NCBI RefSeq assembly: GCF_004010195.1
Contig: NC_057737.1
Span: 11,532,290 to 11,596,289 of the forward strand
Length of the DNA stretch: 64,000 nucleotides
From: Chiloscyllium plagiosum
Taxonomy: Eukaryota
Direction: 5' to 3'
The notes under the pieces are model-generated. The model ran no database searches. It was not told where the DNA came from and was given only the letters and a program-made list of their open reading frames with translations. Made by a program: the position numbers and the translations under genes. Positions 5,792-63,925 of this stretch are shown in pieces (position 1 is the stretch's first letter; each line of letters begins with the position of its first letter).

Positions 5792-5969
5792 TCCATGATT
5801 TGGAGATGCCGGTGTGGACAAAGTTAAAAAACAAAAATCACACAATACCAGATTGTAGTCCAACAGGTTTATTTGGAAATACAAGCTTTCGAAGCGCTGC
5901 TACTTCATCAGCTACAGCTTCCAAATAAACCTGCTGGACTATAACCTGGTGTTGTGCGATTTTTAACAC
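5792..5969. mobile_element. Short fold-back Penelope-like element (family A) with hammerhead motif on - strand (5880-5914)
   Basis: Inverted arms GTTAAAAA..TCACACAATACCAG..GTCCAACAGGTTTATTTGGAA / TTCCAAATAAACCTGCTGGACTATAACCTGGTGTTGTGCGATTTTTAAC. Minus-strand core CTGATGA-AGTAGCAGCGCTTC-GAAAGCTT. Flanked by CATCT(G)TGGGA at 5782-5791 and 5970-5980. Confidence 0.7.
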
Positions 5970-7994: not shown

Positions 7995-8309
7995 GGGCGG
8001 CACGGTGGCACAGTGGTTAGCACTGCTGCCTCACAGCGCCAGAGACTCGGGTTCAATTCCCGCCTCAGGCGACTGACTGTGTGGAGTTTGCACATTCTCC
8101 CCGTGTCTGCGTGTGTTTCCTCTGAGTGCTCCGGTTTCCTCCCACAGTCCAAAGATGTGTAGGTAAGGTGAATTGGCCATACTAAATTGCCTGTAGTGTT
8201 AGGTAAGGGGTAAATGTAGGGGTATGGGTGGGTTGCGCTTCGGTGGGGTGGTGTGGACTTGTTGGGCCGAAGGGCCTGTTTCCACACTGTAAGTAATCTA
8301 AAAAAAAAA
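7995..8309 (+). mobile_element. tRNA-derived V-SINE (HE1-like)
   Basis: A box TGGCACAGTGG, B box GGTTCAATTCC, V-domain GGAGTTTGCACATTCTCCCCGTGTCTGCG...CCGGTTTCCTCCCACAGTCCAAAGA, A-rich tail. Confidence 0.9.
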
Positions 8310-10504: not shown

Positions 10505-11712
10505 AAAATGGCTGTTTGCTACTTATCGAGTTTTTTGAAGAAGTAATAAAGAGGATTGATGAAGGCAGGGTGGTGGACATGATCTATATGGATTTCAGTA
10601 AGGCGTTCGACAAGGGAGACTGGTTAGCAAGGTTAGATCACATGGAATACAGGGAAAACTAGCCATTTGGATACAGATCTGGCTCAATAAGGGTGGAGGA
10701 TTATTTTTCAGACTGGAGGCCTGTGACCAGTGGAGTGCCACAAGGATCGGTGCATTTACATAAATAATTTGGATGTGAGCATAAGAGGTATAGTTAGTAA
10801 GTTTGCAGATGACATCAAAATTGGAGATGTTGTGGACAGCGAAGAAGGTTACCTCAGATTACAATGGGATCTTGATCAGATGGGCCAATGGGCTGAGAAG
10901 TGGCAGATGGAGTTTCATTTAGATAAATGCGAGGTGCTGCACTGTGGGAAAGCAAATTTTAGCAGGACATACACTTAATGGTAAGGTCCTGGGGAGTGTT
11001 GCTGAACAAAGAGACCTTGGAGTGCAGGTTCATAGCTCCTTGAAAGTGAAGTCACAGGTAGATAGGATAGTGAAGAATGCGTTTGGTATGCTTTCCTTTA
11101 TTGGTCAGAGTATTGAGTACAGGAGTTGGGAGATCATGTTGCGGCTGTACAGGGCATTGGTTAGGCCATTGTTGGAATATTGCGTGCAATTCTGGTCTCC
11201 TTCCTAGTGGAAGGATGTAGTAAAATTGAAAGGGTTCAGAAAAGATTTACAAGGATGTTGCCAGGGTTGGAGGATTTGAGCTATAAGGAGAAGTTGAATA
11301 GGCTGGGGCTGTTTTCCCTGGTGGGTCGGAGGCTGAGGGGTGACCTTATAGAGATTTACAAAATCATGAGGGGCATGGATAGGATAAAAGACAAAGTCTC
11401 TTCCCTGGTGTGGGGGAGTACAGAACTAAAGGGCTTAGGTTTAGGGTGAGAGGGGAAAGATATAAAAGAGACCCGAAGGACAACATTTTCATGCAGAGGG
11501 TGGTACGTGTATGAAATGAGCTAAGCAAGTGGTGGAGGCTAGTACGATTGCAACATTTAAAAGGCATCTGGATGGATATATGAATAGGAAGGGTTTAGAG
11601 GGATATGGGCCAGGTGCTGGCAGATGGGACTAGATTGGGTTGGGATAGCTGGTCAGCAAGGACAAGTTGGATCAAAGGGTCTGTTTCTGTGCTGTACAGC
11701 TCTATGACTCTA
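10505..11712 (+). mobile_element. CR1-like LINE ORF2 (RT) remnant with 3' end
   Basis: Fragments SKFADDIKIG, WAEKWQMEF, RPLLEYCVQFWSP, IERVQKRFTRMLPG, with frameshifts and stops. Confidence 0.92.
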
Positions 11713-15291: not shown

Positions 15292-15699
15292 ATTGTAAAT
15301 TTGAATTAAATCAGATGTGTGCGAAGATTTGTCAGAGATGGGTTGCTGTTTGTTTAGTAGGAGTATTTTCACTTAAAATTGACAGGATTCCAAAGTTCAA
15401 GCATTTTTCTTTGAATCATTAATGAGCGTGTCATGGAGATTCAGGAAGTCACCAAAGTCAAATCCACATTCCTATCTATTAATATGTATCTTGGGTGGCT
15501 GATACTAATACATGTTGGTATTCTGATTTACCAATCAGGATAAGACCAACCTGTCCCAATTGCCTAGGCCAATAAATTCAAATAGAGCTTTTAGGCACAC
15601 TATGTCACAATGAATTTTGACAGGCAGATTTCCAACACAGAGAAATTGCTTGTGGTCCTAGGACTATGGGTTGGACTCTGATTTAACTCTCTTGATTTT

Positions 15700-15998
15700 G
15701 GGCGGCACGGTGGCACATTGGTTAGCACTCCTGCCTCACAGCGCCCGAGACCCAGGTTCAATTCCCGCCTCAGGCGACTGACTGTGTGGGGTTTGCATGT
15801 TCTCCCAGTGTCTGCGTGGGTTTCCTCCGGGTGCTCCGGTTTCCTCCCACAGTCCAAAGGCGTGCAGGTCAGGTGAATTGGCCATGCTAAATTGCCCGTA
15901 GTGTTAGGTAAGGGGTAACTGTAGGGGTATGGGTGGGTTGCGCTTCAGTGGGTCGGTGTAGGCCGAAGGGCCTGTTTCCACACTTATGTAATCTAATC
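15700..15998 (+). mobile_element. tRNA-derived V-SINE (HE1-like)
   Basis: Near-identical to 7995-8309; TAATC-type tail. Confidence 0.9.
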
Positions 15999-28855: not shown

Positions 28856-29064
28856 GAAAAATGTGTTGCTGGAAAAGCGCAGCAGGTCAGGCAGCAAAGG
28901 AGCAGGAGAATCGACGTTTCAGGCATAAGCCCTTCTTCAGGAAGAAGGGCTTATATCCGAAACGTTGATTCTCCTGCTCCTTTGATGCTGCCTGACCTGC
29001 TGCGCTTTTCCAGCAACACATTTTTCAGCTCTGATCTCCAGCATCTGCAGTCCTCACTTTCTCC
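28856..29064. mobile_element. Short fold-back Penelope-like element (family C) with hammerhead motif on - strand (28911-28943)
   Basis: ~85-bp inverted arms centred near 28940 and a one-sided tail at 29030-29064. TSD TAGAATAA(C/A)AGGACCT at 28840-28855 and 29065-29080. Core CTGAAGA-AGGGCTTATGCCT-GAAACGTC. Confidence 0.85.
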
Positions 29065-31311: not shown

Positions 31312-31399
31312 TGAAACTTTATTGCTGGAACAGCACAGCAGGTCAGGCAGCATCCAGGGAACAGGAGATTCGACGTTTCGGGCACAGGCCCTTCTTCAG
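31312..31399 (-). mobile_element. Single-arm Penelope-like short element (family C) with intact hammerhead motif (31368-31402)
   Basis: Minus strand TTC-CTGAAGA-AGGGCCTGTGCCC-GAAACGTC-GAA. Flanking direct repeat CAGGAAAGATTACAAAGT at 31294-31311 and 31397-31414. Confidence 0.8.
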
Positions 31400-35270: not shown

Positions 35271-38200
35271 GACTTGGCAAGAAGGCAGCGATTCAGTAGA
35301 ACTGCCTTGGATAGCTCTGCCTAACAGCCAAGGCATATTGGTGGGTTTTTTTTTAACAATCCCTGGCCAACTTCTATGGAGAAATTGTTAATTTAAAAAC
35401 ATGAAGAACACATATTCATTGACAATTTGGAGTCTGACGGATGCCAAAAGGAAAAGGAGCAAGCAAACAGCAGTATGAAGGACACTCCCCCACAGCAGCA
35501 GCCTCTCCCGAACACCCGGGGGACCTGACAGACTCACAGAAATTGGCAGCAGCAATGGCGAGACTTACCATGAAGGTTAAGGCTGTGATTGAGGCGATCC
35601 GTGCCCAAGTCCAACCCATCGTGTCCATGTTGCAGAAGCATGAACGGGGAGCTCCAGGTCCTCGGGGAGCGGATAGAGGAGGTGGAGGGTTGAACCACAG
35701 GCTTGGAAGTGGCTATCGGGTCCTTGTCCGGACGGATGCAGGTACTGAAGCAGGAAGTGCAGGCCTTGCGTGATCAGGTCGACGACCTCGAAAGTCAAGG
35801 TAGGAGGACGAATCTTTGGATTGTTGGGCTCACAGAGGGTGAAGATGGTGGGTAGCCAGTCAGCTTGTTTGAAAACTGGCTGCCGCAGTTCCTGGGCCTT
35901 CAAATTGAATCTGGACGGCTGCACATTGAGGGGCTGGGCCTGTACAGTGCCCCACCTGGTCCTATCGCACTTCCTCACATACAGGTACAAGCATAGAAGC
36001 CTCCAGATTACTGGGGAAAGATCCACAGGCACTGCTGCACAAGGGGTCAAAGATCATGTTTTTCCAGGACTTCTCAGCTGCTATAATTTGAGAGAGGAAA
36101 TCCTTCGATGAAGTTAAAAAAAAAGCTGAGGAACCTGGGCATCCAGTACTCCATGAGGTACCCCGCGGTGCTCCATTTCAGCCACGCAGATTCAGTTTAT
36201 ATGTTTGACTGCGGATAAAGCCAAGAACTTTGTAGACACTTTAAAATTATCCAATTAGTCTGAAGAATACGGTTAATGTTCCTCCTGTTTTCCTTCTATC
36301 CCTGTGTTTTCCCTTTCCCTTTTTTCTCTTTCCATAATTTTTAAAAAATTCTTGGAATATATTGTTCCTATTATATTTTTATAACTGGATTTTATCACAG
36401 AATTTTGTGGGTGCCTTTTGTTGTTTTCCCCTTTTTTTATTCTTTTAGTCACAAGTTGGGTGATATGGAACCGGGGATAGGAGTGCTTATTCTGACTTTG
36501 TCGTCTTTTGTTGACTTAAGGGTCATCTCCTTGTTTATTTATTTATTTTTGCCTAAGGCTGTGGCACAGTCCAGGCCTGAAGGAGCTGTGCAGGAGGGAA
36601 TGGGTAGGGCATGTGCCCCCTGTCGGCAGGGGGGAGAGTCTCCTGTTCAAGATTTTATGTTTGGTTTCTTTGTAGTTTTTTGGTAGCAATAGTTGTTTGT
36701 AGTTAGGATAGGGTATTTTTGTATACACAATTTTGCGACTCTTCATTTACTTGTGCTCGGCACATTGCAAGCAGGGTTCTCCTCGGGGGTTCAAGGATCT
36801 CTGAAAGGGGATAGGGCTAAGTGTCTTGTTAAATGATGCACCTGGAACATCAAGGGAAGTCATCCACCTGTTAAAGGAAAAAAGGTGCTAGCTTTAAGGG
36901 GAAATGTCTTGATATCGTCTGTTGCAGGAAACCCATCTTGATGATGGGGGACATCTGAAGTTATAACAGGGGATTATGATTGGTTATTCTTTTCATTCTT
37001 TACTACTAAAAGTAGTGAAGTGGCTGTACTTATCCAGAAAAATCTTCCATTCACATTATTAGAGTAGGTGAAAGATGAGCAAGGACAGTTTGTGATACTC
37101 AAGGCCTAATACGTGGGGAGGAATATAGCATTTTAAATGTCTACTGTCCTCTGGCACATCCCCTCAAATTTTTGATTATTGCCTTTTCTAAGTTGAGTGC
37201 CTTTGGAACACGGCACATTATTATGGGGGGGGGGATTTCAATTGTCCTTTGGATCCAACAGTGGACAGGATGCCTTGTGGGCCCTCAACTATTTCTTCGC
37301 AGGTCAAGCAGGTGGTTGATTTATGGGAGGAGTTGGGGCTGGTGGACATTTGGAGATATCTTCACTCTACCGGCGGGACTTCATTTTTTTTCAAACTCAC
37401 ATAAATGTCACACAAGGATTGGTATTTTTTGGCTCCCTCGACACTTCTGGATTCAATTATGGGTTGTAAAATTGGGAATATAGGTATCTCTGATCACACA
37501 ACGGTATATTTGGAGGTTAAGGCCAAGAGTGAGTGGCTAGGTTTGTGGCACTGGCATCTGGATCCTTTTCTCCTTAAGGATTCCAAATTTGTGGAATGCT
37601 TTTTGAGGGAGTTTCAGGACGACTTGACTATCAACTTGAGCACAGCTAGTAGTCCATCTATGCTATGGGAGACCGCTAAGGCCTCTGCTAGGGGATTAGC
37701 TATTTCCTGTTTGGCTAGCCGGAAATGACCGAGGGGAGAACAGCAGCGTCTACTTGAGACGTGGCCGAAAGCTGCTGAGATGGCATGTTTTGTGAGGCCT
37801 TTGGTAACCAAGCTACAGCAGATCACAGCCCTTTGGGCTGCCTTGAATTCAATACTTACACAAACCGCAAAGAAAGAACTTGCTTTTGTGAAACAAAGGC
37901 TGCTCGATATGGGGATAGGCCAGCGAAGTATTTAACATATCTGACTAGAAAAAAGCGTGCTCCTTAATCCATTACTGCAGTTAGAAACTGCGCCGGGGTC
38001 CTTACATACGATGTCAAAAGGATTAATGAGTCTTTTTGGTCTGAAGGTTGCGAGGATAGGAGAGCCAAGATGGAAGCTCTTTTTTTTAAGAGCCTGGACC
38101 TCCCCGGGGACAACCCTGGAAAAGGCCTCCCTCCTTAATGCCCCCTTGACGGTTCAGGAAATACAGGAGGCAGCTAGGCAACTTCAAAGTGGGAAAGCAC

Positions 38201-40897
38201 CTGGTCCTGATGGTATCCCGGGTGAGTTTTACAAGGAGTTTATAGGGATTCTGTCAGGGTCGATGCTAGAAATGTACAATCACTCCTATATGCATGATTG
38301 CCTACCACCATCTTTGGGAGAAGCTAATATTTCCTTCATTCTTAAGAAAGGAAGGGTTCCTGAAGATTGTGCCTCATACAGGTCCATCTCTCTATTAAAT
38401 TTAGATTTTAAGTTTCTGTCTAAGAGTTGGGCGCTAGGATTGGAGAAGGTATTTCCCCATATTGTCAAAGAGGGCCAGGCAGTTTTTATAAGGGGCTGTA
38501 GGTCTTCTAATAATATTAGAAGGTTGCTGAGTGTGAACCAAGCATGTCAGCAGCAATCGATCCAGGGGTTGGTGATTTCCTTAGCTGCAGAGAAAGCATT
38601 TGACCAGTACCTCTTTTATGCCTGAGAGCAGTTTGGGTTGGGTGGGGTCTTTGCTAGGTGGGCAGAGGTTTTATATTGCCACCCTCTAGCCACAGTCATA
38701 ACCAATGGGGTGAATTCTGGGAACTTTAGGATTGGCAGGGGTAGTCATCAAGGCTGCCCCCTCTCACTTGTTGTTTACGTTGGTGATAGAGCAGCTGGCA
38801 AAGGTCATTCGTCAGAATGTCCACATAACCACACTGGAAGTGGGATCGAGGGTACACAAGATTGCACTGTATGCGGATGATGTCCTTCTGTTTTTATCGG
38901 GCCTAATGACCTCCATACTCCATCTGATACATTGTATTAATTCATTTGAGGCTTTTTCAGGATGTAAGATCAACTTTGCAAAATTGGAGGCTATGCCTTT
39001 GGGGGACCTTAAGGAAATGCCAGTGGTTGAAGGTGACCCTAGGTTCCCCTTTAAGTGGTCAAGGGCAGGTTTCCAATACCGAGGAATCTTTATTACCTCC
39101 CATGTTTGATCGGTTATTTCGTACTAATTTTGCTCATCTGCTCAACAATATTTGGCAGGATCTTCAGAGATGGGAGGCTGTTCCAATTTTGTGGTTGGGC
39201 CAAATAGCCATTATTAAGATGAATGTCCTCCCTCATCTGCTTTATCCTATGCATATGCTCCCTATAATGTTTCCCAGGTCAACATTGCAGAAACGTATTG
39301 GTTGGTTTCATTCTTTCGTCCGGCGTTGAGTGGCCCCTCATCAAACTTACTAAATTGCAGTTGCCTCAAGGATGGGAACGAGTTGATTTCCCAGAATCAG
39401 GAGATATCAGTTGAATTCCCCACTGTCCTTTGTGTGCAATTGGGAAGGTAACAATCCAGGCTCAATGTGGCTGGATATCGAGGTCTCCCAGGGAAAGTGC
39501 CCTCTTATTAACCTGTTGCTCATGGATAAGATGAGGACAGTTACGGACCACTGCTGGAACCCCATTGTTATTAGTACAGTCAAGGCATGGAGAGCAATGC
39601 ATCAGAGTGAGGGTTGCTTATCCAAGACTTTGCTATTCACTCCATAGTTGCTATGCTGGGGTTCTGACCAGAGATGATGCACTCAGAGTTCAAACTTTGG
39701 GCAGCGAGAGGAGTTTCCAGCTTGGAAGATTTGTTTGAGGGTGAGATTGTGATGTTTTTCGAGAAACCGAGCTGAATATACGGGCTGCCCAGCAGAGATC
39801 TTTTCCATTTTCATCAGCTTAAGGATTTCATCCAGAAGGAAACTACGCTTCTCACTAAGCCCTATAAGCCCGATATAGAGAGGATGTTGCTACATGCCAC
39901 AAGCACCCTTTCGGTTAATGCCCTTTAATTGCCTGCTGGATGATAGGGCCTGGCAGAATATTAACCGGTTATGTGAGGTTTGGGAGCAAGAGCTAGGAGT
40001 GGAAATCTCTTCTGGAACGTGGGAGGACATGGGAGAACATGCGAAAGATCTCAATTTGTAATAGGGCATGCGGCTATGCAGTTAAAAGTTCTGCACAGGG
40101 TTCATTTGGCACTGGATTGTCTGGCCAAATTTTAAAAAGGGGCATCTCCAATGTGCCTCTAATGTAAAATAAGTGTAGGTACTCTTACCCATTGCTTCTG
40201 GACATGCCACAGGCTCCATGTTTATTGGAGCTGTGGTGGGAGAGGTAGGGTATTGAAGACTAAAGTTAGAGTAGACCCGATATCTCTCCTAGATCTATTG
40301 AATTTGTCATCTTTAGACGGGCATAGGAAGAAACTACTTAATATTCTTATTTACTGTGCACAGAAGAATATTCTGATGAATTAGGTGTCTGAGAACCCGC
40401 TAGGCTTGCTTTGATGGTGGAAATTAATTATGGCACACATTCTCGTGGATCTTTTCACAAATACGGTGCACCACATAACAGACATTTTTATTTATAAGGC
40501 ATGGCGGCCCTTTTTGAGTTATTTGGACACAGATCTGTCTGGTATGTTAACTAGGGCGTTTGTTTAACCAGGGTGGTTAGGTTTGCTGAGCCCTGGAGAG
40601 GGAGGGGGGCTCCTGAGTTAATACGGGTATATATACAACACTCCCGTTTTTTGTTTGGGAGCTTTACACTGAGCATTGTTATTTTGTGTTTTTTTTTGTA
40701 TTATTAGTCACTTATTTATTGGTATTGTTTTGCACAGTGTTTGGTTTTGTTTTGTATTATTGGGTAGGTTAGTAGACAGTAGTTGTATTGTAATTTGTGG
40801 GGTTTTTTGTTGTACTGGTATTTGTTAAATTTTCAATAACTTTATATTGTTGTAAAGTCAAAAGGTTTTTTCACTAATAAATGTATTTACACAAAAA
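35271..40897 (+). mobile_element. Full-length decayed L1/Tx1-clade LINE (ORF1 ~35441-36260, ORF2 ~36810-40570)
   Basis: Endonuclease motifs (TWNIKG, LQETHL, ISDH), RT motifs (GKAPGPDG, YRSISLLN, QGCPLS, LYADD), C-terminal C..C...H...C at ~40155-40207, T-rich 3' UTR, AATAAA plus short A tail. Putative TSD GTATGTA at 35264-35270 and 40898-40904. Many stops and frameshifts. Confidence 0.9.
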
Positions 40898-43249: not shown

Positions 43250-44212
43250 CAAAGTTTGGGTGAAGATTTGTAGCTTGGGTGCTCATTGTTGTGGTTCTGT
43301 TCGCCGAGCTGGAAATTTTTGTTGCAAATGTTTCGTCCCCTGTCTAGGTGACATCCTCAGTGCTTAGGTGCCTCCTGTGAAGCGCTTCTGTGGTGTTTCC
43401 TCCGGCATTTATAGTGGCCTGTCCCTGCCGCTTCCGGTTGTCAGTTTCAGCTGTCCGCTGTAGTGGCCGGTATACTAGGTCCAGGTCGATGTGTTTGTTG
43501 ATGGAGTTTGTGGATGAGTGCCATGCTTCTAGGAATTCCCTGGCTGTTCTTTGTTTGGCTTGCCCTATAATGGTAGTGTTGTCCCAGTCGAATTCATGTT
43601 GTTTGTCGTCTGCGTGTGTGGCAACTAGGGATAGCTGGTCGTGTCGTTTCGTGGCTAGTTGATGTTCATGGATGCGGATCGTTAGCTGTCTTTTGGGGGC
43701 CTCCTGCGAAGCGCTTCTTTGATGTTTCCTCCGGTGTTTATATTGGTCTGTCCCTGCCGCTTCCGGTTGTCAGTTTCAGCTGTCGGCTGTAGTGGCCGGT
43801 ATATTGGGTCCAGGTTGATGTGTTTGTTGATGGAGTTTGTGGATGAATGCCATGCCTCTAGGAATTCCCTGGCTGTTTTTGTTTCGCTTGCCCTATAATG
43901 GTAGTGTTGTAGTGGGACAACACTACCATTATAGGGCAAGCGAAACAAAGAACAGCCAGGGAATTCCTAGAAGCATGGCACTCATCCACAAACTCCATCA
44001 ACAAACACATCGACCTGAACCCAATATACCGCCCACTGTAGCGGACAGCTGGAACTGACAACCGGAAGCGGCAGGGACAGGCCACTATAAATGCCGGAGG
44101 AAACACCACAGAAGCGCTTCACAGGAGGCTCCCAAGCACTGAGGATGTCACCTAGACAGGGGATGAAACGTTTGCAACAAAAATTTCCAGCTCGGCGAAC
44201 AGAACCACAACA
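43250..44212. mobile_element. Penelope-like element remnant (family D): GIY-YIG 3' end plus pseudo-LTR in inverted arms, with hammerhead motifs at 43324-43363 (-) and 44136-44175 (+)
   Basis: AREFLEAWHSSTNSINKHINLDPIY (PLE GIY-YIG C-terminus). Two minus-strand segments followed by one plus-strand arm. Perfect TSD ACTACTGAGATATT at 43236-43249 and 44213-44226. Confidence 0.9.
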
Positions 44213-44724
44213 ACTACTGAGATATTTTACTGTATGATTGCTTAAGTAAAAAATATACAGTGATACTTTGTAGGAAGGAGCAGGTGCAGGGGTTCAAGCA
44301 GTGTTTACATTTGGTTAGTGTGATATGTTAGGTCAAGGAAGGCTGTGTTTTTCTGCCCAGTACTTTTTTAAAAGTCTGCCCATTTATTTGCATCTTTGTC
44401 AGTCTTCTGTTGCGTGGGTGTAATTGAACGTTAATATTTCAAAGAGTGTATGAGGCTGTCATCAGCATGATTAAATATTTGTTTCAACCTTGAGAAATCT
44501 TGCTGAGTCATTAGTCTGATTCAGCAATTCATTTAATAGGTGTGGAAGGACATTACTCATTGTATTGCATACAAAGTTCAGAACAAAAGTGTACTGTCCT
44601 CTTTTGTCCCTTCCCCATAACTTTGTTAGGTTTTGTTTCCTTTCATGAATAATAAAGAATCCACGTCCAGATATAAACTTACATATTCTCAGAATGTTTG
44701 ATTGTGGAACATTACTGACATATT

Positions 44725-45827: not shown

Positions 45828-45940
45828 GGGAGAAAGTGAGGACTGCAAATCAGAGCTGAAAATGTGTTGCTGGAAAAGCGCAGCAGGTCAGGCAGCATCC
45901 AAGGAGCAGGAGAATCGACATTTCGGGCATGAGCCCTTCA
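45828..45940 (-). mobile_element. Single-arm Penelope-like short element (family C), truncated inside the hammerhead core
   Basis: Matches 28856-29064. Perfect TSD ATTGAATTTTTTAT at 45814-45827 and 45941-45954. Confidence 0.85.
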
Positions 45941-53923: not shown

Positions 53924-54119
53924 CAATTCTGATGACAATTTGTTGAAGAACATTGAGCTGTTTGACAAGTTATCCCTGCGATTTAATGGAAGAGTGCTTT
54001 TTATGAAGGATGTCTTGGGAGATGAGATTTGCTGCTGGTCATTTTATGGGCAGGGACGCAAACTTGCAGAGGTTTGCTGTACTTCCATCGTGTATGCAAC
54101 AGAAAAGAAGCAAACCAAG
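53924..54119 (+). CDS. TNFAIP1: TNFAIP1 coding exon 5
   Basis: (S)[65 protein letters not shown]; 196 nt. Confidence 0.96.
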
Positions 54120-54754
54120 GTACGTGAAAGGTGACCACCATTTTTTAAAAAAAACTGATGTAAGAGTAAAATTCCTTTAGTAATACTTGACTTTAAAAAG
54201 TGTATTTTTTTGTGCCTGGTCTCCTGATACAAAGTTATTTAAACTATGTCCAGTGGTACCCTGAAATGCCATCAGAATTTGGCAAGTCCTTTCTTTTGTA
54301 CAGGATGGATATCAAAGGAAGACTTTGAGTTGGCATTCAGCTGTAATCCCAGAAGAAGGAAGGAGAAAGAAAAGAGAATAGCAACATAATTATCCTGGGG
54401 ACATTCTTGGACACATTCAAAGCTAGCAGACAACATTTATAAAGCTTGGCGACAACATTTCAGTCATCATCTTTGTCTTGGGATTGGCAGATTATATAGA
54501 TACATTCATAGGATCTAGGGTATTTCAAAGCAGTCAAACATTGTCCCTTCACCTCTGAGACTTAGTTTCTTGAAATGGAGTTGAACCCAAGGTGAATGCA
54601 TTCCTTGTACTGAGTTTCCTGAAAACATTAATTTGAAATGTTTCACCTTGTTAATTATAAGCATGAAAGGAAAATTACACGTTGACAATATGCCCGATTC
54701 ACCACATGGCAACATTGCAATTCTAATTGTTTACATTTTCTTCTAATTATATAG

Positions 54755-54991
54755 GTTGAATTTCCAGAAGCGCGAATTTATGAAGAGACATTAAATGTCT
54801 TGCTTTATGAAACTCCACGTGTACCTGATAACTTGTTGTTGGAAGCCACTAGTCGAACCTCTGGTCAGGGATCACACAGTGAAGATGAAGAGGCATTGGA
54901 AGTTAGAGATCGTGTGCGTCGAATACATGTGAAAAGATACAGCTCCTATGATGACAGACCTCTTGGACACCAGGCTACCTATAGAGATTAA
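54755..54991 (+). CDS. TNFAIP1: TNFAIP1 last coding exon
   Basis: [34 protein letters not shown]...[26 protein letters not shown]. Total CDS 960 nt (319 aa). Confidence 0.96.
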
Positions 54992-57900
54992 CATTGTAAT
55001 CAGATGGATAGGTGTGAACAGTATTTACATTTTAAAACACTTTTTATCTACTAATGATCATCAGATGGGTTATCATGGAACATGAAGGCAACTGACTGAA
55101 GAGAGAAAAAAACCTGCGCTTTCAAGGTTAATTTTCTTTCATTTGTTATAATGTTGATTTTTGTTTGTTTAAAAAAAAAAGCCTTTGAGCTGAAATGCTT
55201 GTCAAAAGTTGTGAATTAATTGGCCTTAACTCCATTATAGGTTGTCTTTCTGTTGATCTTAAAGTAGTTTCAAAAATCTGAAACCTCAATTTGATGGAAT
55301 TCTGGCTTACCTCTAGCAATGGAGGTGAAGTTTGATGCCAGTGCCATTGCATACTCCATAGAGGGAGGAAACAATAACAATGAGAATTTTCCTCTCATGA
55401 TTGCTACATGCCTTTTGCTTCAGACCATGAAGGCCTGGGATTGAGTGCACCTCTCCCCTTTTTTGTCACTGTTTTTGGCTTTGGACATTAAGAGGATTCA
55501 TCCTCAAATATCAGAAGAGTACATTTGAGTCGAAACCTGTCTGCTAATTTCATACTCGTTTTGCTCCTATTTCTGTTCAATATGGATCAAGATACTACAG
55601 TGCAATTACTTTCTGAACCATTGAGTGTGCCTTAGTTTACAACTCTTAAGTTCATCATTCATTCGTTTTTTTTCATTCATTCATTTTTACATTCAATGTT
55701 TTAGGAGTGCAGGAGGAGAAAACCGTTTTAGTTACCATTCTTCTCCAAGAATAATTCTTCCACACCAACTATGTCAGCACCTTTATCATTTCAGACACCT
55801 AACATAGCATTTATAAAATGGTGCATTGCATAGTGTTTGGAGGTGAGGTCTAGTCAAAATCTATCTGAAATCCTAGTGTTTAATACCTTTATTTCCAAGT
55901 CTTAATGAACTATGATTCTCAACTCTTTAATATGTGATGTTTGTTTTTTATTTGTGTTATGGTGAAATATATTTTACATGGTGTGTTTTTAATGGAACCT
56001 CCAAGGAAAATCTTTTAATAAGTAGCATTGGCAGTCTGGGAAGATAATGTGTTTACTTATCATTTTAAAATAATGGAATTGGATTTGCATCTGAAAATTA
56101 TGTTAACTGGACCAAAATGTTAAGTTTCTATTTTTGTATGTGTACACTGCCCATTGCTTATCTTTGTGTGAACTTGAGATGGTATATTTGACACTACAGT
56201 GCACTGTTTGCATCAGATAATGGTATGTTGGCTGAAACTGACTTTATGTAATGTTTGTGAAACTAACTGAACATTAGTCATATATGAATTGATGAATTAT
56301 GTGAGTAATTCAAGTTAGACTTTCAATCGGAGAAATTTTATGGGCTTGTGACTTAGCCAAGATGCAAGTCAGGATTAGACTGTTTTCAGATTGTGGTGAG
56401 ATTCTTCCTTTTTCACTTGCCCCTGCCCTGAATCATACCAGTTGCTGGCTGACTATAGAGTGGATTTGACAACAACTGAAGCTGTGATTAAGAATCAAGT
56501 CTGCACTCTTAAGTCTGGAATTGAGCTCCTTTTACCTTCATCTAAACAAAATAACTTCCTTTCAGTGTGGCTTTCTGCTTCACTAGGAACTGTTTCTAGG
56601 ATGCACTTTCTTTCATTATAATACTTTATCATGTTATGCAATTTATATCAGAAGAAAACATGCCCTCAAGGGAAATCCTCTTCATGGCTCAGACAAAACA
56701 GCCTAGAACTTTAATCCCAACTATCTTGAGGATGACCATACACAGTGAGGGCCATTGGCAGGCCTACAGTAAACTAATTCACTGCCCTCATTAGGATGGT
56801 ACTGCTGCATGTGAGTGCTAGTAATGGCCCCAGAGGTTCTCTGAGAGAGCAAGAAAACATAGGAGTTGAACATGAGCAATAGTCAACAACAGCCTGTAAA
56901 AGGGTGATTGGAACATTCTTGCTCCAGAAGGCAGGTTTTGCTTTAAAGTTGACATGCTGCAGGGTCACAACCTCCAGTCACACTTTTTAAGGGTTGATGG
57001 TATACGTGTTGAGGCCCTGAAATACTTTTAGCCATGAGCCTGTGGGTTTAACATCAGAGAATATATACAAACCCTAAACATATATTGACCAGTCCTAACT
57101 AGAGTGCGTGATGCAATTTTAGCAGAGGAAGAGCATATGCTTATCACCTGCAATTTTCAAACATTAGGTACACATTTTAACCTACTGAATTTCTAGGCTA
57201 GTGCCAAATACTATGTCATCTCAGTACTGTTTAAATGGCTGTACGGGTTTTACTGCCAGCCATCATATCTGACCGATAGTGTTGACTAAACTCAGTCACT
57301 CATCAACAGCGGTGCAAAATCTCCAAAGTTGTTTGTATTTCACTTCTTCAGTCAAAATTGTGTGAGAAGGGATAAACAAATCATCTCAAAGATGTAAAAA
57401 TTGATGCCAAAGTATCTGCTAAATTGCTTGACCACCAATCTTTGATCCCCCCCCTCAAATGTAAATAAATTTGAATGCATATCCAAGATGAGTTTCGATT
57501 GTGTACAATCACAGGATATAAGTAATTTCTTTAGAAAGGATAGTTTTTGTTTGCTTCAATGATAAATGGTCTGGCATTATCACTTTTATTATAAATTGGT
57601 TTCAAAGTTTACATTTTGGTTTCCTAAGCAACATGTAGATAGCTGTCACAATCCAATAAACAAATCTGGATTATCACTACATGTAACTGATCTCTAACTT
57701 CTGCAGTTCATTGGTCCTGTAGATGAAATATCCCAGTATTTCATAGTTGCAACTCAAGAAGGTTTACATGCTAACCTAAACACCAGTTTTGCAGTATTTT
57801 AATCAATGAATTATATCAATGATTGACACGCAGGATAAGAGAAGCAGTTGAGGAAAAGGGAACTTTTTAGAGTCAATATTGATTTTTGTCTTATAATTTG

Positions 57901-58385
57901 AATGCAAATATATTGATGTCTACTTACATTTCAGTCCTGTGTGAATTTCCAAGTCTTTTTTTTTAATGAGCTAATTTGCAAAATCTTCGAAGGCACAAAT
58001 ATTGCAGTGATTGAGGTGCTGCTTGCGTCTGTGAATATTGTAACATCAAATATTGCAATTAAGCTGTGAAATGGTTGTTTAAATTGTGGTTGCTGAAAGG
58101 CTTACAGTGAGCCCAGTTGATTAACTAACACTGGAATACTCACCCACGAAACCACTGTGTAAATAAAACTGCTCAGAATTTTTGACACTGTGATGGATTT
58201 TTTTTCCCCACAAAGTTGCTGTATCGCACATATTTAAAACAACCTGTAGCAACACTATTTGTAAGGAATAACTTTCTGGAAGGGTACTTCTACTTCTAGA
58301 CCAGAGTGTTGCTCCTTTTTAAATATTGTACTAAAAAATTAAATATTTACTAACATTAATAAAATGTGGTGTTGCTTGAGTGTAG
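54992..58385 (+). other. TNFAIP1: Probable long (~3.4 kb) TNFAIP1 3' UTR with several poly(A) signals
   Basis: Repeat-poor AT-rich stretch. AATAAA at 57655, 58162 and 58358, the last followed by GT-rich sequence. Extent inferred. Confidence 0.55.
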
Positions 58386-58734
58386 TCTGTCTTTTAAATA
58401 CAATTGTGATTCTAATCTGTGTACCTTTTGTAAACATTTCAGTATTTCAACAGAATCAAGTTATCAGCTTAATTCTGGATTAGGCATAATAAAGATAGCA
58501 AGATCATTTTTCAGCTTTAAGAATGTAAATAATGTCCATGTAAATTCATCCATGATAGTGAATGTAAATGTTATCTAATGCCAAAAACTAATCATTTAGG
58601 TTGCAGACCATTAGAAGATTCTTCAATTTTGTTTCAAAATGTGATAGTTACAACTTCAGCTGAGCACTGTCTACCAACATGAAAATTGTTGAAATTTTAT
58701 CATTGGTATTGAATCCCTGTAATGTGGAAACAGG

Positions 58735-59748
58735 ATGTCGGTTTGCTCGCTGAGCAAGATTTGTATTTCAGATGTTTCATCAACGTACTAGGTAACATCA
58801 TCAGTGAGGCAAAAGTGAGTACTGCAGATGCTGGAAATCAGAGTCTAGATTAGAGTGGTGCTGGAAAAGCACAGCAGGTCAGGCAGCATCTGAGGAGCAG
58901 GAAAATCGACATTTCAGGCAAAAGCCCTTAATCAGGAATCAGGTTTTTTTTCCCCGAAATCCATCACAGTGTCAAAACTTCTGAGCAGTTTTATTTACAC
59001 AGTGGTTTCTTCAGTTTTCCTGCTCCTCGGATGCTGCCTGACCTGCTGTGTTTTTCCAGCAGCACTCTAATCTAGGCCCCAACATCATCAGTGAGCCTCT
59101 GGATGAAGCACTGGTGGCATGGCCTGCTTTCTATTTGTGTTTAGGTTCCTTGGGTTGGTGACGTCATTTACTGTTATTTTTCTCGGGGGGGTGGTAAATG
59201 CAATCTAAGTCAATGTGTTGGTCGATAGAGTTCTGGTTGGAATGCCATGCTTCTAGGAATTCTCGTGCATGTCTCTGGCTTGTCCTAGGATGGATGTGTT
59301 GTCCCAGTTGAAGTGGTGTCCTTCCTCATCTGTATGTAAGGATACTAGTGAGAGTGGGTCATGTCTTTTTGTGGCTAGTTGATGATAGTATCCTTACATA
59401 CAGATGAGGAAGGACACCATTTCGACTGGGACAACACATCTATCCTAGGACAAGCCAAACAGAGACACGTACGATAATTCCTAGAAGCATAGCATTTCAC
59501 CCCGAACTCTATTGACAAACACATTAACTTGGATCCCATTTACTACCCTCTAACAAAAATGACATCACCCACCCAAGGAAACCTAAATACAAAAGAAAGT
59601 GGGCCATGCCACCAGTGCTTCATCTGGAGGCTCACTGATGATGTTACCTAGTATTGTGACAAAAGGTCTAAAAATGAACTTTCCAGCTCAGTGAGCAAAC
59701 CTACATCCCGAACCTCAACCTGAGCTAAAAATCTTCTCAAAACTCGCT
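58735..59748. mobile_element. Penelope-like fold-back element (family D-related) inserted into a V-SINE
   Basis: Plus arm translates TDEEGHHFDWDNTSILGQAKQRHVR*FLEA*H...SIDKHINLDPIY; turn near 59385. Hammerhead motifs at 58768-58807 (-) and ~59632-59670 (+, mutated). Duplication A(A/G)TG(T/A)GGAAACAGG at 58721-58734 and 59749-59762. Confidence 0.85.
58809..59080. mobile_element. Nested short fold-back element (family C variant) containing captured host sequence
   Basis: Inverted arms CTAGATTAGAGTGGTGCTGGAAAAGCACAGCAGGTCAGGCAGCATC / GATGCTGCCTGACCTGCTGTGTTTTTCCAGCAGCACTCTAATCTAG. Perfect TSD AACATCATCAGTGAG at 58794-58808 and 59081-59095. Confidence 0.85.
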
Positions 59749-59762
59749 AGTGAGGAAACAGG

Positions 59763-60072
59763 CCCTTCATCCCAACAAGTCCACACCGACCCTCTGAAGA
59801 ATAACCCCCCCCCACTCACCCACTATTCTATTTTTACCCCTGCCTAATGCAGCTAACCTAAACATCCCTGAACATTATGGGCAATTTAGCACAGCTAATT
59901 TATCTAACCTGCACATCTTTGCATTGTGGGAGGAAACCAGTGCGCCCAGAAGGGATCCACGCTGACACACAGAGAATGTGTGAAGTTTTCACAGTTGCCC
60001 GAGGCTGGAATCAAACCTGGGTCCTTGGTCCTGTGAGGCAGCAGTGCTAACCACTCAGCCACTGTGCCACCT
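59763..60072 (-). mobile_element. tRNA-derived V-SINE (its 3' tip is displaced to ~58708-58734)
   Basis: Reverse complement of the 7995 SINE family, more diverged. Confidence 0.85.
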
Positions 60073-61071: not shown

Positions 61072-61252
61072 TAAGACCCTATAGATAAATAGGGCAGAAA
61101 TATAAGACCCTATAGATAGATAGGGCAGAATAAAGAAGGGGAAATTGTTTTATAAGACCCTATAGATAGATAGGGCAGAATAAAGCAGGGGAAATTGTTT
61201 TATAAGATCCTATAGATAGAAAGGGCAAAATAAAGAAGAGGAAATTGTTTTA
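61072..61252 (+). repeat. 50-bp tandem repeat x3 plus 31-bp partial unit in the ERV leader
   Basis: Unit TAAGACCCTATAGATAGATAGGGCAGAATAAAGAAGGGGAAATTGTTTTA at 61103, 61153 and 61203. Confidence 0.92.
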
Positions 61253-61520: not shown

Positions 61521-61937
61521 TTATAGTTTGATCATTGTGATCTGATTTGTATGCATAATTGTAAGATTGTGGTTAAATGTTTGTGTTTTGTTTCCCTGGA
61601 TCTCAAGATCCAGGGGTATTTTGATTTTATTTTGCACTGTAAGAATTTAAGATAGTTTTTTTGAGAGAGAAATTTCCCAAGAAACCATTAGTGATTGGTG
61701 CAATTTGAAGGTGCAGTGAAGGATTGATTTAGGCTGAATGAATGAGAATAGGTTGTTTGTATTAACTAGCTGCAATTGAGGACGTTTAGAAATTGATAGA
61801 TTGGTACGGGACAATTGCAAGTTATAAAGTTAGGAATTGCTTATACTATTGAACAAAGCACTCCAGGCTTGATGGTATGAGGAAGTGATTTATGAGAGCA
61901 AAGATAATGCATTAGTTGGACTGAAATATATCGTAGG

Positions 61938-63925
61938 ATGGATAAAGGGACTGCAATTGAGATACTGAGTAAGAAATTTCCAGTGGCAAGAAATGATATT
62001 GTAAAAATTTCTGAGAAATGGGAAAAAAGAACTAAGGATTCATTGACTAAATGGACAAAAGAAGGTAACTTTGATGTACATATGTGCAATGAGATGGAAG
62101 GATTAATTAAGATCTATAAGTCGAAAGATAAATCTAAAAATAGAAATCAAAACAGGAATCAGGAGGTGGAAATATTGAAACTTTTCAGGAAAGAGAGTGA
62201 GGAACTGAAGGTAGCTTGTCAGGCACCTGTGGTGACTAGGAAAGCTGCAAAAGAACAAGCTGAGCAGTTATGGGAAACAGAAAAGGAGGAATCAGCATCC
62301 CTTCTATACCCAGATGTGGAGGAGTTGAATAGACCTCGTCCCTACTTGACTGAAGTGGCATTGAAGCAGTGTCCAATAATAAAGGGAACAGTAGAAATAG
62401 AGAGACTGTTAGAATGGGATAGAAGTGCAGAAGACAAAAATGAACTGAGGGAAAGAAGAGAAAGAGAGAAAAGGGACAGGCAGGAGCAAATAGAAGCTAT
62501 ACGATGAGAGCAAGAAAAGCTGAAACATGAGATTAGTGTGCTGCGTGGGCTAAGGGAACAAAAAGCAATTGAGGAATACTCATTGCGATACGAAAGGAGG
62601 GTCGAAGAGAAAAGCAGTGAAAGTGACGGAGAGCAAGCAGAAAGGGAGCATGAGGGACAAGGAAAGAAAAAGGCCCCAGTCCCTAAAAAAATGGGAGGAA
62701 TTATAAATAGCATTGGATTTAGAGCCCGAGGGGGATTTATTGAGAAGTAGTGTTAATAAAGGAAAATAGGGCCAACAGGGAAGGATGCTACTGCTCCTTG
62801 TAAAAGAGGGGAGAAACCGACAATACATTCCTTGGGGAACTCAGGATCTGGAAGGGCTGAAGAATGCGTTGCTCAGTTTACATGAGGGAGCGGGAAAGTG
62901 TATCAGGAGTTTTGAAGATGAAACCACAGGGCAGTTGCTGGCTATAGGAGACTTGAAGGCACGGCTGGTGAGGTCGGTAGGACTCCCAAAGTTAAAGGAA
63001 ATAATGGTCTGAGCCCGATTGAAAAATGTCGCAGACAATCCAATGATTGATGGGGTCAGGTTTGATCGAGTGAGACAGAAGGTATGGCAGGCCTTAAGAG
63101 TCTGTTATCCACCCAAAATGGACCCCCAGGCTCTGAGAGGGGATCCACTGGGAGAAAGTGAAAACCCAGCTGCTTATTTGGAGAAACAGTTAAAGAAGTG
63201 GAGGCTGGAAACAGAGCAAGACATAGAGACTAATCAGTTGCTGACCACAATGTTCCGAAATTCCATCATTGAGGCAATGCCCTTCCAAGTCAGGTCAAGG
63301 CTAGAGGAGGTGGTGGGTCTGACATCATCAATGAGCCACCAGGAATTTAAAGATCATGTAGTTCATGTAGTTGAAAGGTTTCGAAAAGACAAAGAGAAAC
63401 TGCCTGAACAGCAGGAGGAGGTGCAAAGGAAGCTGGCGCAAATGCAGCTCGAAGAGCTTAAAAAGAAAGATAAAGAGAAGGCTAAAAAGGTGTTGCCAGT
63501 AAGAACCGACACAGTAATCAACACTGGCATGAACCAAGAGCCGGCGCAAGGGGGGGTCCTATCAGGTAGCCAGACAGGGGCCAGAAAATCCCATGGCAGC
63601 AATGGAGGTTTTGAGAGAAGCTTTCCAGCAGGTGACGTATCCGGGGCAGGGCAGATTTAAACAACAGCCGAAAAAGAACTGAAGTCCCCAAGGACAGGGA
63701 CATAGGAATGGGTGACTGAGGTACATGATAAATAGTCAGGTTCAAGAGGGGCCAACAATAATGTGCTGGGGATGCCATCAACCAGGCCACTTTAGGAGGA
63801 ATTGCCCTTATTGGACTGGGCCCTCTCTGCCCTACAGCGGGCCTAGACGGCAGGAATCCCCAGTGGCCACTTCCCAGACACGCACAGGCCCAGCAGAACC
63901 TGTTAACCTGTATGGGATGTGTTAG
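61938..63925 (+). pseudogene. gag: Disrupted ERV gag
   Basis: Consecutive ORF pieces separated by in-frame TGA codons (62505, 63010) and at least two frameshifts. Charged coiled-coil region, capsid-like segment YIPWGTQDLEGL...AGKCIRSFEDET, and CCHC knuckle CWGCHQPGHFRRNC at 63764-63805. Confidence 0.85.

Follow-up and report, generated by a model that had tools for sequence, protein, structure and literature searches.

How does a piece of a neighbouring gene come to lie at the turn of a fold-back retroelement? In the stretch of shark DNA that we analysed (64,000 nucleotides, referred to below as the window), a short fold-back insertion, B, holds between its arms two abutting copies of sequence from the adjacent TNFAIP1 gene's 3′ UTR, one of which includes a poly(A) signal. 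An earlier reading made from the sequence alone (the sequence-only reading) had proposed that a template switch during integration, onto nearby DNA or onto the end of the local mRNA, produced this filler, and that the copy could mask the poly(A) site. We find it very probable that a local template, DNA or RNA, was captured during the sealing of the insertion. The more specific reading that we favour, template switching onto the opened donor DNA duplex while two cDNAs were sealed, has in our view an even chance of being correct.

B is a 272-bp fold-back Penelope-like insertion (58809–59080), nested in the left arm of an older copy, A. It consists, in order, of a 36-bp tail, arm 1, CAGG, T8C4, a single G, an inverted 53-mer, TTCAG, arm 2 and GCCCC, and it contains no ORF. 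The tail (58809–58844, minus strand) is present on arm 1 and not on arm 2. Arm 1 (58845–58939, minus strand) is a pseudo-LTR end with a degenerate hammerhead core that reads CTGATTA instead of CTGAnGA. Arm 2 (59015–59075, plus strand) comprises 61 bp, of which 58 are complementary to arm 1, so that 58845–58905 pairs with 59015–59075, and it ends 0–2 nt from the hammerhead cut as predicted from the core numbering. The flanking target-site duplications (TSDs) are 15 bp long and identical at all 15 positions; the left one (58794–58808) falls within the hammerhead core of A, and the right one (59081–59095) directly follows the GCCCC at 59076–59080. Within the duplicated 15-mer, A's CTGATGA is found as its reverse complement, and the 15-mer is similar to the CATCAGG end of B itself.

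The inverted, 5′-truncated terminal repeats with a TSD, the tail of 30–40 bp on one end only and the dispersed, high-copy family are all features of Penelope-like elements (PLEs), whose published signature comprises inverted truncated ends, a one-sided 30–40-bp tail, a TSD and a hammerhead (PMC3846280, PMC8557442, PMC4209133). By this signature, B would be of the endonuclease-bearing type, and it shares its head-to-head truncated ends, its tail on one arm, its TSD and its repeat hammerhead with the PLE insertions of Arkhipova et al. (2013, PMC3846280) and Craig et al. (2021, PMC8557442). A minimal hammerhead descriptor of our own (CTGAnGA-stem-GAAA-CG-TC) matched family copies at 28940 and 31399; arm 1 of B was unmatched and has the same layout with one core change. 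An Rfam scan returned nine matches at E ≤ 1, mostly hairpin look-alikes over the fold-backs, with no hammerhead among them and none at the gathering score.

Element A (58735–59750) is itself a Penelope-like fold-back with a hammerhead core, bounded by a 12-bp TSD with one mismatch (58723–58734 and 59751–59762), and its inner arms are 83% alike. The right arm of A retains the uninterrupted target of B and thus provides the empty site. Contigs derived from other copies of the A family likewise skip B, with joints at 58808>59104, 58807>59102 and 58755>59081. A larger Penelope-like fold-back is found at 43286–44213; its left arm has a partial tandem, both of its arms have a hammerhead core, and it too retains coding remnants. 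The coding remnants in A and in this 43-kb copy gave no Pfam match; by their motif, we take them to resemble the C-terminus of the endonuclease. A third kind of short, old fold-back is located at 5833–5964, with arms that are 77% identical and no TSD found.

Further copies of B's own family occur at 28856–29064, 31312–31396 and 45828–45940, with TSDs of 16, 18 and 14 bp, respectively. The fold-back at 28856–29064 has a tail on only one arm, like B, and its arms meet without filler. Host sequence was captured at none of the four other fold-back turns in the window, where the longest flank matches were 8–15 nt and the 15-mer was a family paralogue, nor at two single-arm 5′ ends. A 19-nt family motif was also encountered in metagenome contigs at 48 loci; these were taken as chance, as the 15 best rows had no family match of more than 34 nt.

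The two pieces of the filler are readily traced. The inverted piece (58957–59009, minus strand) matches the reverse complement of 58148–58200 at 52 of 53 positions (T58179 versus G; E = 1.2e-18 when the window was searched against itself with BLAST), as had been claimed, and 756 bp separate the two segments, in agreement with the spacing of about 750 bp given before. The forward piece, T8C4 plus one G at the turn (58944–58956, plus strand), is a direct copy of 58198–58209: TTTTTTTTCCCC occurs exactly twice in the window, at 58198–58209 and 58944–58955, against an expected 0.05 occurrences, and 0 of 100 shuffles gave two. The poly(A) signal AATAAA (58162–58167) does lie within the donor. The filler had also been placed exactly at the turn. 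It sits between the arms, but these are unequal, and the 109-nt loop also contains 34 nt of unpaired arm 1.

Three short joints were missing from the earlier account: CAGG (58940–58943, plus strand), which either belongs to the family sequence or arose when the end of arm 1 was duplicated by slippage, G58956, and TTCAG (59010–59014), which reads CTGAA on the minus strand. Together with the last AAAA of arm 2, the latter joint reads AAAACTG, a motif that occurs once in 57800–58793, inside the donor at 58165. G58956 may conceivably copy an ancestral G at 58210 that the donor has since lost by CpG decay. When each arm is read 5′ to 3′ from its own nick, the attached piece is plus-strand donor sequence in both cases, 58198–58209 for arm 1 and 58148–58200 for arm 2. 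The pieces thus abut in opposite orientation, meeting head to head over one G:C pair, and overlap by 3 nt in the donor. Microhomology at the switches ranges from 0 to 4 nt; where arm 1 joins, it amounts to 2 nt (GG, one A skipped), and upstream of 58148 there is none. The donor lies 585–646 bp from the target site.

The donor (58148–58209, plus strand) is transcribed, single-copy TNFAIP1 3′ UTR. We compared four of 24 listed sequencing runs, using contig sets from three (X5, X7 and X18) and stranded reads from one (X21); word shares of 0.72–0.92 in the best 17 of the 24 cannot separate B present from B absent. X5 and X7 were picked as DNA but behave like RNA with background. Over 58101–58200, summed contig depth was 77.1 (X5), 51.7 (X7) and 136.3 (X18), compared to 77.1, 41.8 and 135.8 for one covering contig. 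In X7, the depth was slightly above that of the single contig throughout 58101–58300 (51.7 and 44.1 versus 41.8), which may reflect a T-run allele or a piece of the copy. A sensitive search with 58100–58260 gave only two matches above 24 bits in the window, the donor and its copy, and the 53-mer is absent from the five other family segments that were aligned. With the single-contig depth in X5 and X18, these results indicate that the 53-mer is neither a dispersed repeat nor part of the family consensus. In a relative (organism C, X18), the donor region is contained in one gap-free contig (57956–58306) with six differences, and the UTR copy is therefore the ancestral one. The divergence within B (4/141, or 2.8%, 95% interval 0.8–7.3%; 1/53 between donor and copy, 3/61 between the arms) resembles the 3.8% between the window and organism C, and for this reason the event is probably not fresh.

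The gene upstream is TNFAIP1/BACURD2. Its last coding exon (54755–54991, plus strand, stop TAA at 54989–54991) has shark BACURD2 as its best matches, at 96% and 95%, and its BTB exons were recognised in a domain scan. A PDB search did not tell the BACURD paralogues apart, whereas the shark protein matches did. The 3′ UTR, as far as seen, covers 54992–58306 (plus strand): in the part compared with the runs (56401 onward), sense-only X21 reads reach into the 58201–58300 bin, the relative's contig spans 57956–58306, and 54992–56400 would be UTR as well. Five AATAAA occur in 54000–60000 (57464, 57655, 58162, 58358 and 58488). The third, 3.2 kb past the stop codon, is a candidate poly(A) signal, with TGTA just upstream, CA at 58187–58188 and a GT/T-rich stretch after it.

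Across 56401–58300, X21 contains only first-mate-minus (sense) reads, equivalent to about 12 read-lengths over 57301–58300. Sense depth falls from 2.83 to 0.49 to 0 in the three bins of 58101–58400, with no pile of ends, a profile that is compatible with an RNA end near 58190–58250 without mapping that end. First-mate-plus depth was 0 in all 23 bins of 56401–58700, at low depth; with so few read-lengths of RNA over this region, the lack of antisense reads is weak evidence and is silent on the time of insertion. The contig from the relative, at depth 136, runs past the 58162 signal to 58306.

Could the filler be absent from the animal and reflect an assembly or library artefact? Complex PLE insertions are known to trouble short-read assemblies (PMC8557442), and family copies swamp the element here, with a summed contig depth of 0.8–9.5 million in the arm-1 bin (58801–58900) against 42–219 in the flank. 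Among the pieces listed, none spans the filler junctions, which counts against the duplex switch as well as in favour of an artefact. At 56647, 57248, 57475 and 57811, the window also disagrees with each of the three contig sets (and with X21 at the two of these positions that it covers), reflecting either private alleles or base errors in the assembly. However, the single mismatch between donor and copy (58179) falls where X5 and X7 agree with the donor in the window, their four differences each being elsewhere, and the small untemplated joints, the intact TSDs and the family-typical anatomy also speak against an artefact. We consider the chance of an artefact to be very slim.

The opposite orientation of the two pieces bears on the template. 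A single jump of the reverse transcriptase (RT) onto polyadenylated TNFAIP1 mRNA cleaved near 58200, with the T8 copied from the tail, has some points in its favour: the plus-strand 53-mer reads as cDNA of the mRNA, T8 precedes it and the donor has an AATAAA. Such a jump would explain the 53-mer, but not the T8C4, because sense RNA copied by RT gives each piece reversed; two abutting pieces in opposite orientation therefore cannot both result from it. Furthermore, the T8 is separated from the body by CCCCG, in which CCCC matches the next four genomic bases (a coincidence of about 9e-4 by chance), rather than being a poly(A)-derived tract at the cleavage site. If cleavage occurred at CA 58187–58188, one third of the captured bases would not be in the mRNA at all. 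The AATAAA itself is weak evidence of anything, since one is present in 171 of 1870 segments of 62 nt taken from up to 1 kb around the target site. The sequence thus leaves the plain jump onto the mRNA end, one of the two routes in the sequence-only reading, nearly excluded. Three geometries remain: side-by-side priming on the minus strand, a U-turn in the opened duplex, and one jump onto a free, self-primed plus-strand hairpin.

The first two geometries belong to the duplex switch. The anole element PAc nicks and extends both strands, starting at two tail-delimiting sites and without primer–template homology (PMC11167929). The building and closing of PLE inverted ends are described as still undefined (PMC8557442, PMC11167929). 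In the reading that we favour, the element protein would have nicked both strands 15 bp apart inside the older copy A, and both 3′ ends would have been extended on element RNA. The outer start site, with the tail, would have given arm 1, and the inner one arm 2. Two short cDNAs would then need to be sealed to each other by their 3′ ends. On the arm-2 side, the strand would halt close to the ribozyme cut and, possibly following a single failed attempt (AAAA-CTG), switch to the chromosomal minus strand some 0.6 kb upstream, where the end of TNFAIP1 is transcribed, and there copy 53 nt of the donor. For the adjoining 12–13 nt, this strand could have turned round to copy the displaced plus strand, or else the arm-1 strand could have primed beside the first stop, as in twin priming. 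The ends would then be joined with both TSDs kept, and the poly(A) signal would be carried along by its position, the copy having no function. The order of these events, the use of DNA as template and the nature of the polymerase, RT or host, are inferred.

Several observations are consistent with this sequence of events. These include the perfect 15-bp TSD and the empty site in the other arm of A, the three family copies with TSDs of 14–18 bp and the matching one-arm tail at 28856–29064. Each arm also carries plus-strand donor sequence up to the 3-nt overlap. That the arm-2 strand copied the donor at the time of insertion is hinted at by the end of arm 2 near the predicted cut, estimated to occur by chance in about 5% of cases and seen in one copy, and by the recurrence of AAAACTG only inside the donor. 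A DNA template is favoured because X21 shows no antisense reads over the donor and because an RNA hairpin would need an unusual end and tail. On the other hand, microhomology is nearly absent where invasion of a duplex needs it, and the other fold-back turns in the window hold no host sequence. In addition, the minus strand that would serve as template is not the strand usually exposed: resection and R-loops would expose the plus strand here.

It is because of these weaknesses, in microhomology and in the exposed strand, that we assign some weight to the third geometry, although we consider it unlikely. In this case, a nascent transcript of TNFAIP1 with its end near 58210 (or a DNA flap of the plus strand) would fold a few A back onto its own U8 and be extended to 58148; the paired RNA would be degraded, leaving the loop and the new DNA (T8C4G-AAATCC...TTTC). 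The arm-2 RT would run off, add a few bases, jump to the free 3′ end of the fragment and copy it, and the product would be joined to arm 1. With material from the plus strand only, this accounts for the two pieces as well as for their opposite orientation and 3-nt overlap, and it needs no homology at the jump, where none is seen. Arm 2 ends at the predicted ribozyme cut as a run-off product would, and the donor is transcribed, with sense depth in X21 dropping across it. The usual RNA 3′ end, however, is 10–30 nt after AATAAA, and the hairpin requires one at 43–47 nt. A poly(A) tail should also have left more than three A, the donor has no stable snap-back (−1.7 to −4.6 kcal/mol, in the wrong register), and the relative's contig carries on to 58306. 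Self-priming has been proposed for Penelopes (PMC3846280), and one case of a nearby pre-mRNA co-inserted with L1 has been reported (Nam et al., PMC10191854). A broader version, which we regard as rather unlikely, is that the Penelope RT at a break in a transcription-termination zone captures self-primed nascent host RNA hairpins in cis, bridging the two cDNAs with them. If so, the centres of shark fold-backs would preserve, like fossils, where nascent RNAs ended, and from the strand and position of the captured pieces the sealing of PLE inverted repeats could be read out in vivo for the first time.

The asymmetry of the arms raises the question of whether the filler arrived later. Long palindromes are fragile, and B may have been inserted as a more symmetric fold-back and then broken at its palindromic centre, with loss of some of arm 2 and filling of the gap from a template close by. 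Consistent with such a repair, arm 2 is 34 nt shorter than arm 1 at the centre, while four other aligned family segments reach the 5′ half of the hammerhead, and the divergence between donor and copy is not above that between the arms. With so few changes, however, the two values are indistinguishable; the turn positions of the other family copies vary widely (a comparison biased by the reference used), and arm 2 ends at a meaningful position in the RNA. We find later repair distinctly unlikely. Side-by-side priming could also have taken place on RNA instead of the duplex, if both RTs came off the Penelope RNA and primed side by side on a transcript of the minus strand that extends from A through the donor. 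The pieces are arranged as twin priming on a minus-strand template would leave them (PMC11702581), PAc requires no primer–template homology (PMC11167929), and the left arm of A points leftwards. Nevertheless, antisense reads were missing from X21, at its low depth, and A was already old, with inner arms 83% alike, when B, with its 2.8% internal divergence, came, which makes such a transcript a highly unlikely source.

The filler shares features with several known systems. In rotifers, a few unrelated sequences have been captured between solo pLTRs, bounded by TSDs (Arkhipova et al. 2013, PMC3846280). These captures are not traced to an adjacent donor in the available excerpt, whereas in B the donor is 0.6 kb away and has left two abutting, opposite pieces. 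The priming of cDNA ends on nearby genomic DNA has been reported for L1 (PMC11702581, PMC10191854, bioRxiv 10.1101/2024.08.27.596794) and R2 (PMC11371274). Zumalave et al. (bioRxiv 10.1101/2024.08.27.596794) describe 22 templated insertions in L1, typically shorter than 250 bp and within 15 bp of the site, and twin-primed L1 breakpoints have deletions or duplications of 1–10 bp (Mendez-Dorantes et al., PMC11702581). Like these, B contains a short, local, non-element sequence, has kept its TSD and has an inversion junction with few duplicated bases; unlike them, it belongs to another element class, has no poly(A) tail and used a donor 585–646 bp away, a distance that counts against the duplex switch. 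In R2/PRINT, the snap-back and extra-template 5′ junctions similarly arise when the cDNA's 3′ end primes on nearby DNA or jumps to an RNA before closing (PMC11371274), but this is an engineered, site-specific R2 in human cells with one cDNA, and its extra templates are almost always U6.

Repair polymerases offer a second set of parallels. The sequence-only reading had called the insertion polymerase-theta-like, and templated insertions (TINS) made by Pol theta do resemble the filler in combining direct and inverted flank pieces, in taking several rounds of priming and in using an AT-rich template (Carvajal-Garcia et al., PMC7165422). In scale, the fit is poor. Pol theta templates lie about 30–50 bp away, tracts rarely exceed 10 bp and distal templates make up less than 0.1% of repair (PMC7165422), against 53 nt in one tract from 0.6 kb in B. 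With microhomology of 0–4 nt, the 12–13-nt and possibly the 3-nt pieces would fit TINS, while the 53-nt tract does not, and the donor is well outside the 50 bp or so from the break that defines a TINS template. Insertions of the MMBIR type share an inverted copy of a nearby template and several switches (PMC8421209), but are defined within 100 bp and have 2–12-bp microhomology in 80% of junctions; B drew on a more distant template with less microhomology, inside a retroelement join. Among the papers listed in a literature search, in which few subscription papers were covered, none dealt with fillers copied from local sequence, whether at the turns of Penelope fold-backs or in sharks. We regard the filler as a real-looking scar of a known copying slip, unusual in being an informative filler of two pieces. 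Taken alone, it is a single scar, and a neutral one. Any filler whose donor can be traced records what the joining polymerase could reach, and the two abutting, opposite pieces of this one rule out the simplest mRNA jump, which leaves either a snapped-back strand or a duplex that had been opened.

Whatever its origin, the copy had been proposed to pair with the 58162 signal in read-through RNA, mask it and shift cleavage downstream. For an RNA that stops at 59012, with arm 2 not yet made, a 53-bp helix is indeed predicted (−84.6 kcal/mol, pairing probability 1.0), and this helix could be kinetically trapped. Once arm 2 is present, however, the crossing helix between arm 1 and arm 2 (−120.1 kcal/mol) excludes that between donor and copy, and the predicted pairing of AAUAAA drops from 1.0 to 0.0. 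Two more AATAAA (58358 and 58488) precede the copy, and little RNA appears to reach it: X21 has no reads in 58301–58700, and contig depth falls from 77 to 3.6 (X5) and from 42 to 3.9 (X7) before the element. The relative's transcript, furthermore, extends past the 58162 signal. Masking is unsupported, and we believe it has hardly any chance of being real. Nothing found suggests that the filler controls TNFAIP1, and it would appear to be neutral.

Downstream of A, POLDIP2, which we take to be the expected neighbour from human synteny, was not found as an antisense gene when 59.8–64 kb was read and two ORFs were scanned; repeat and gag-like sequence was found there instead. The repeat at 59749–60097 matches 7996–8288 and 15679–15905 at 69–73% and presumably represents a SINE-like family. 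The purine-rich segment 60600–64000 contains gag-like frames (61908–62507 and 63013–63660), a CX2CX4HX4C knuckle near 63765 and a 50-bp tandem array (61101–61252), and is probably an LTR retroelement, though without a convincing Pfam match. Elsewhere in the window, a 226-aa frame at 37945–38625 has a weak RVT_1 match (E = 2e-4, below the cut-off) and resembles a LINE-like remnant, and a weak U6-like match (23 bits, E = 0.2) at 11199–11305 is possibly a decayed U6 copy.
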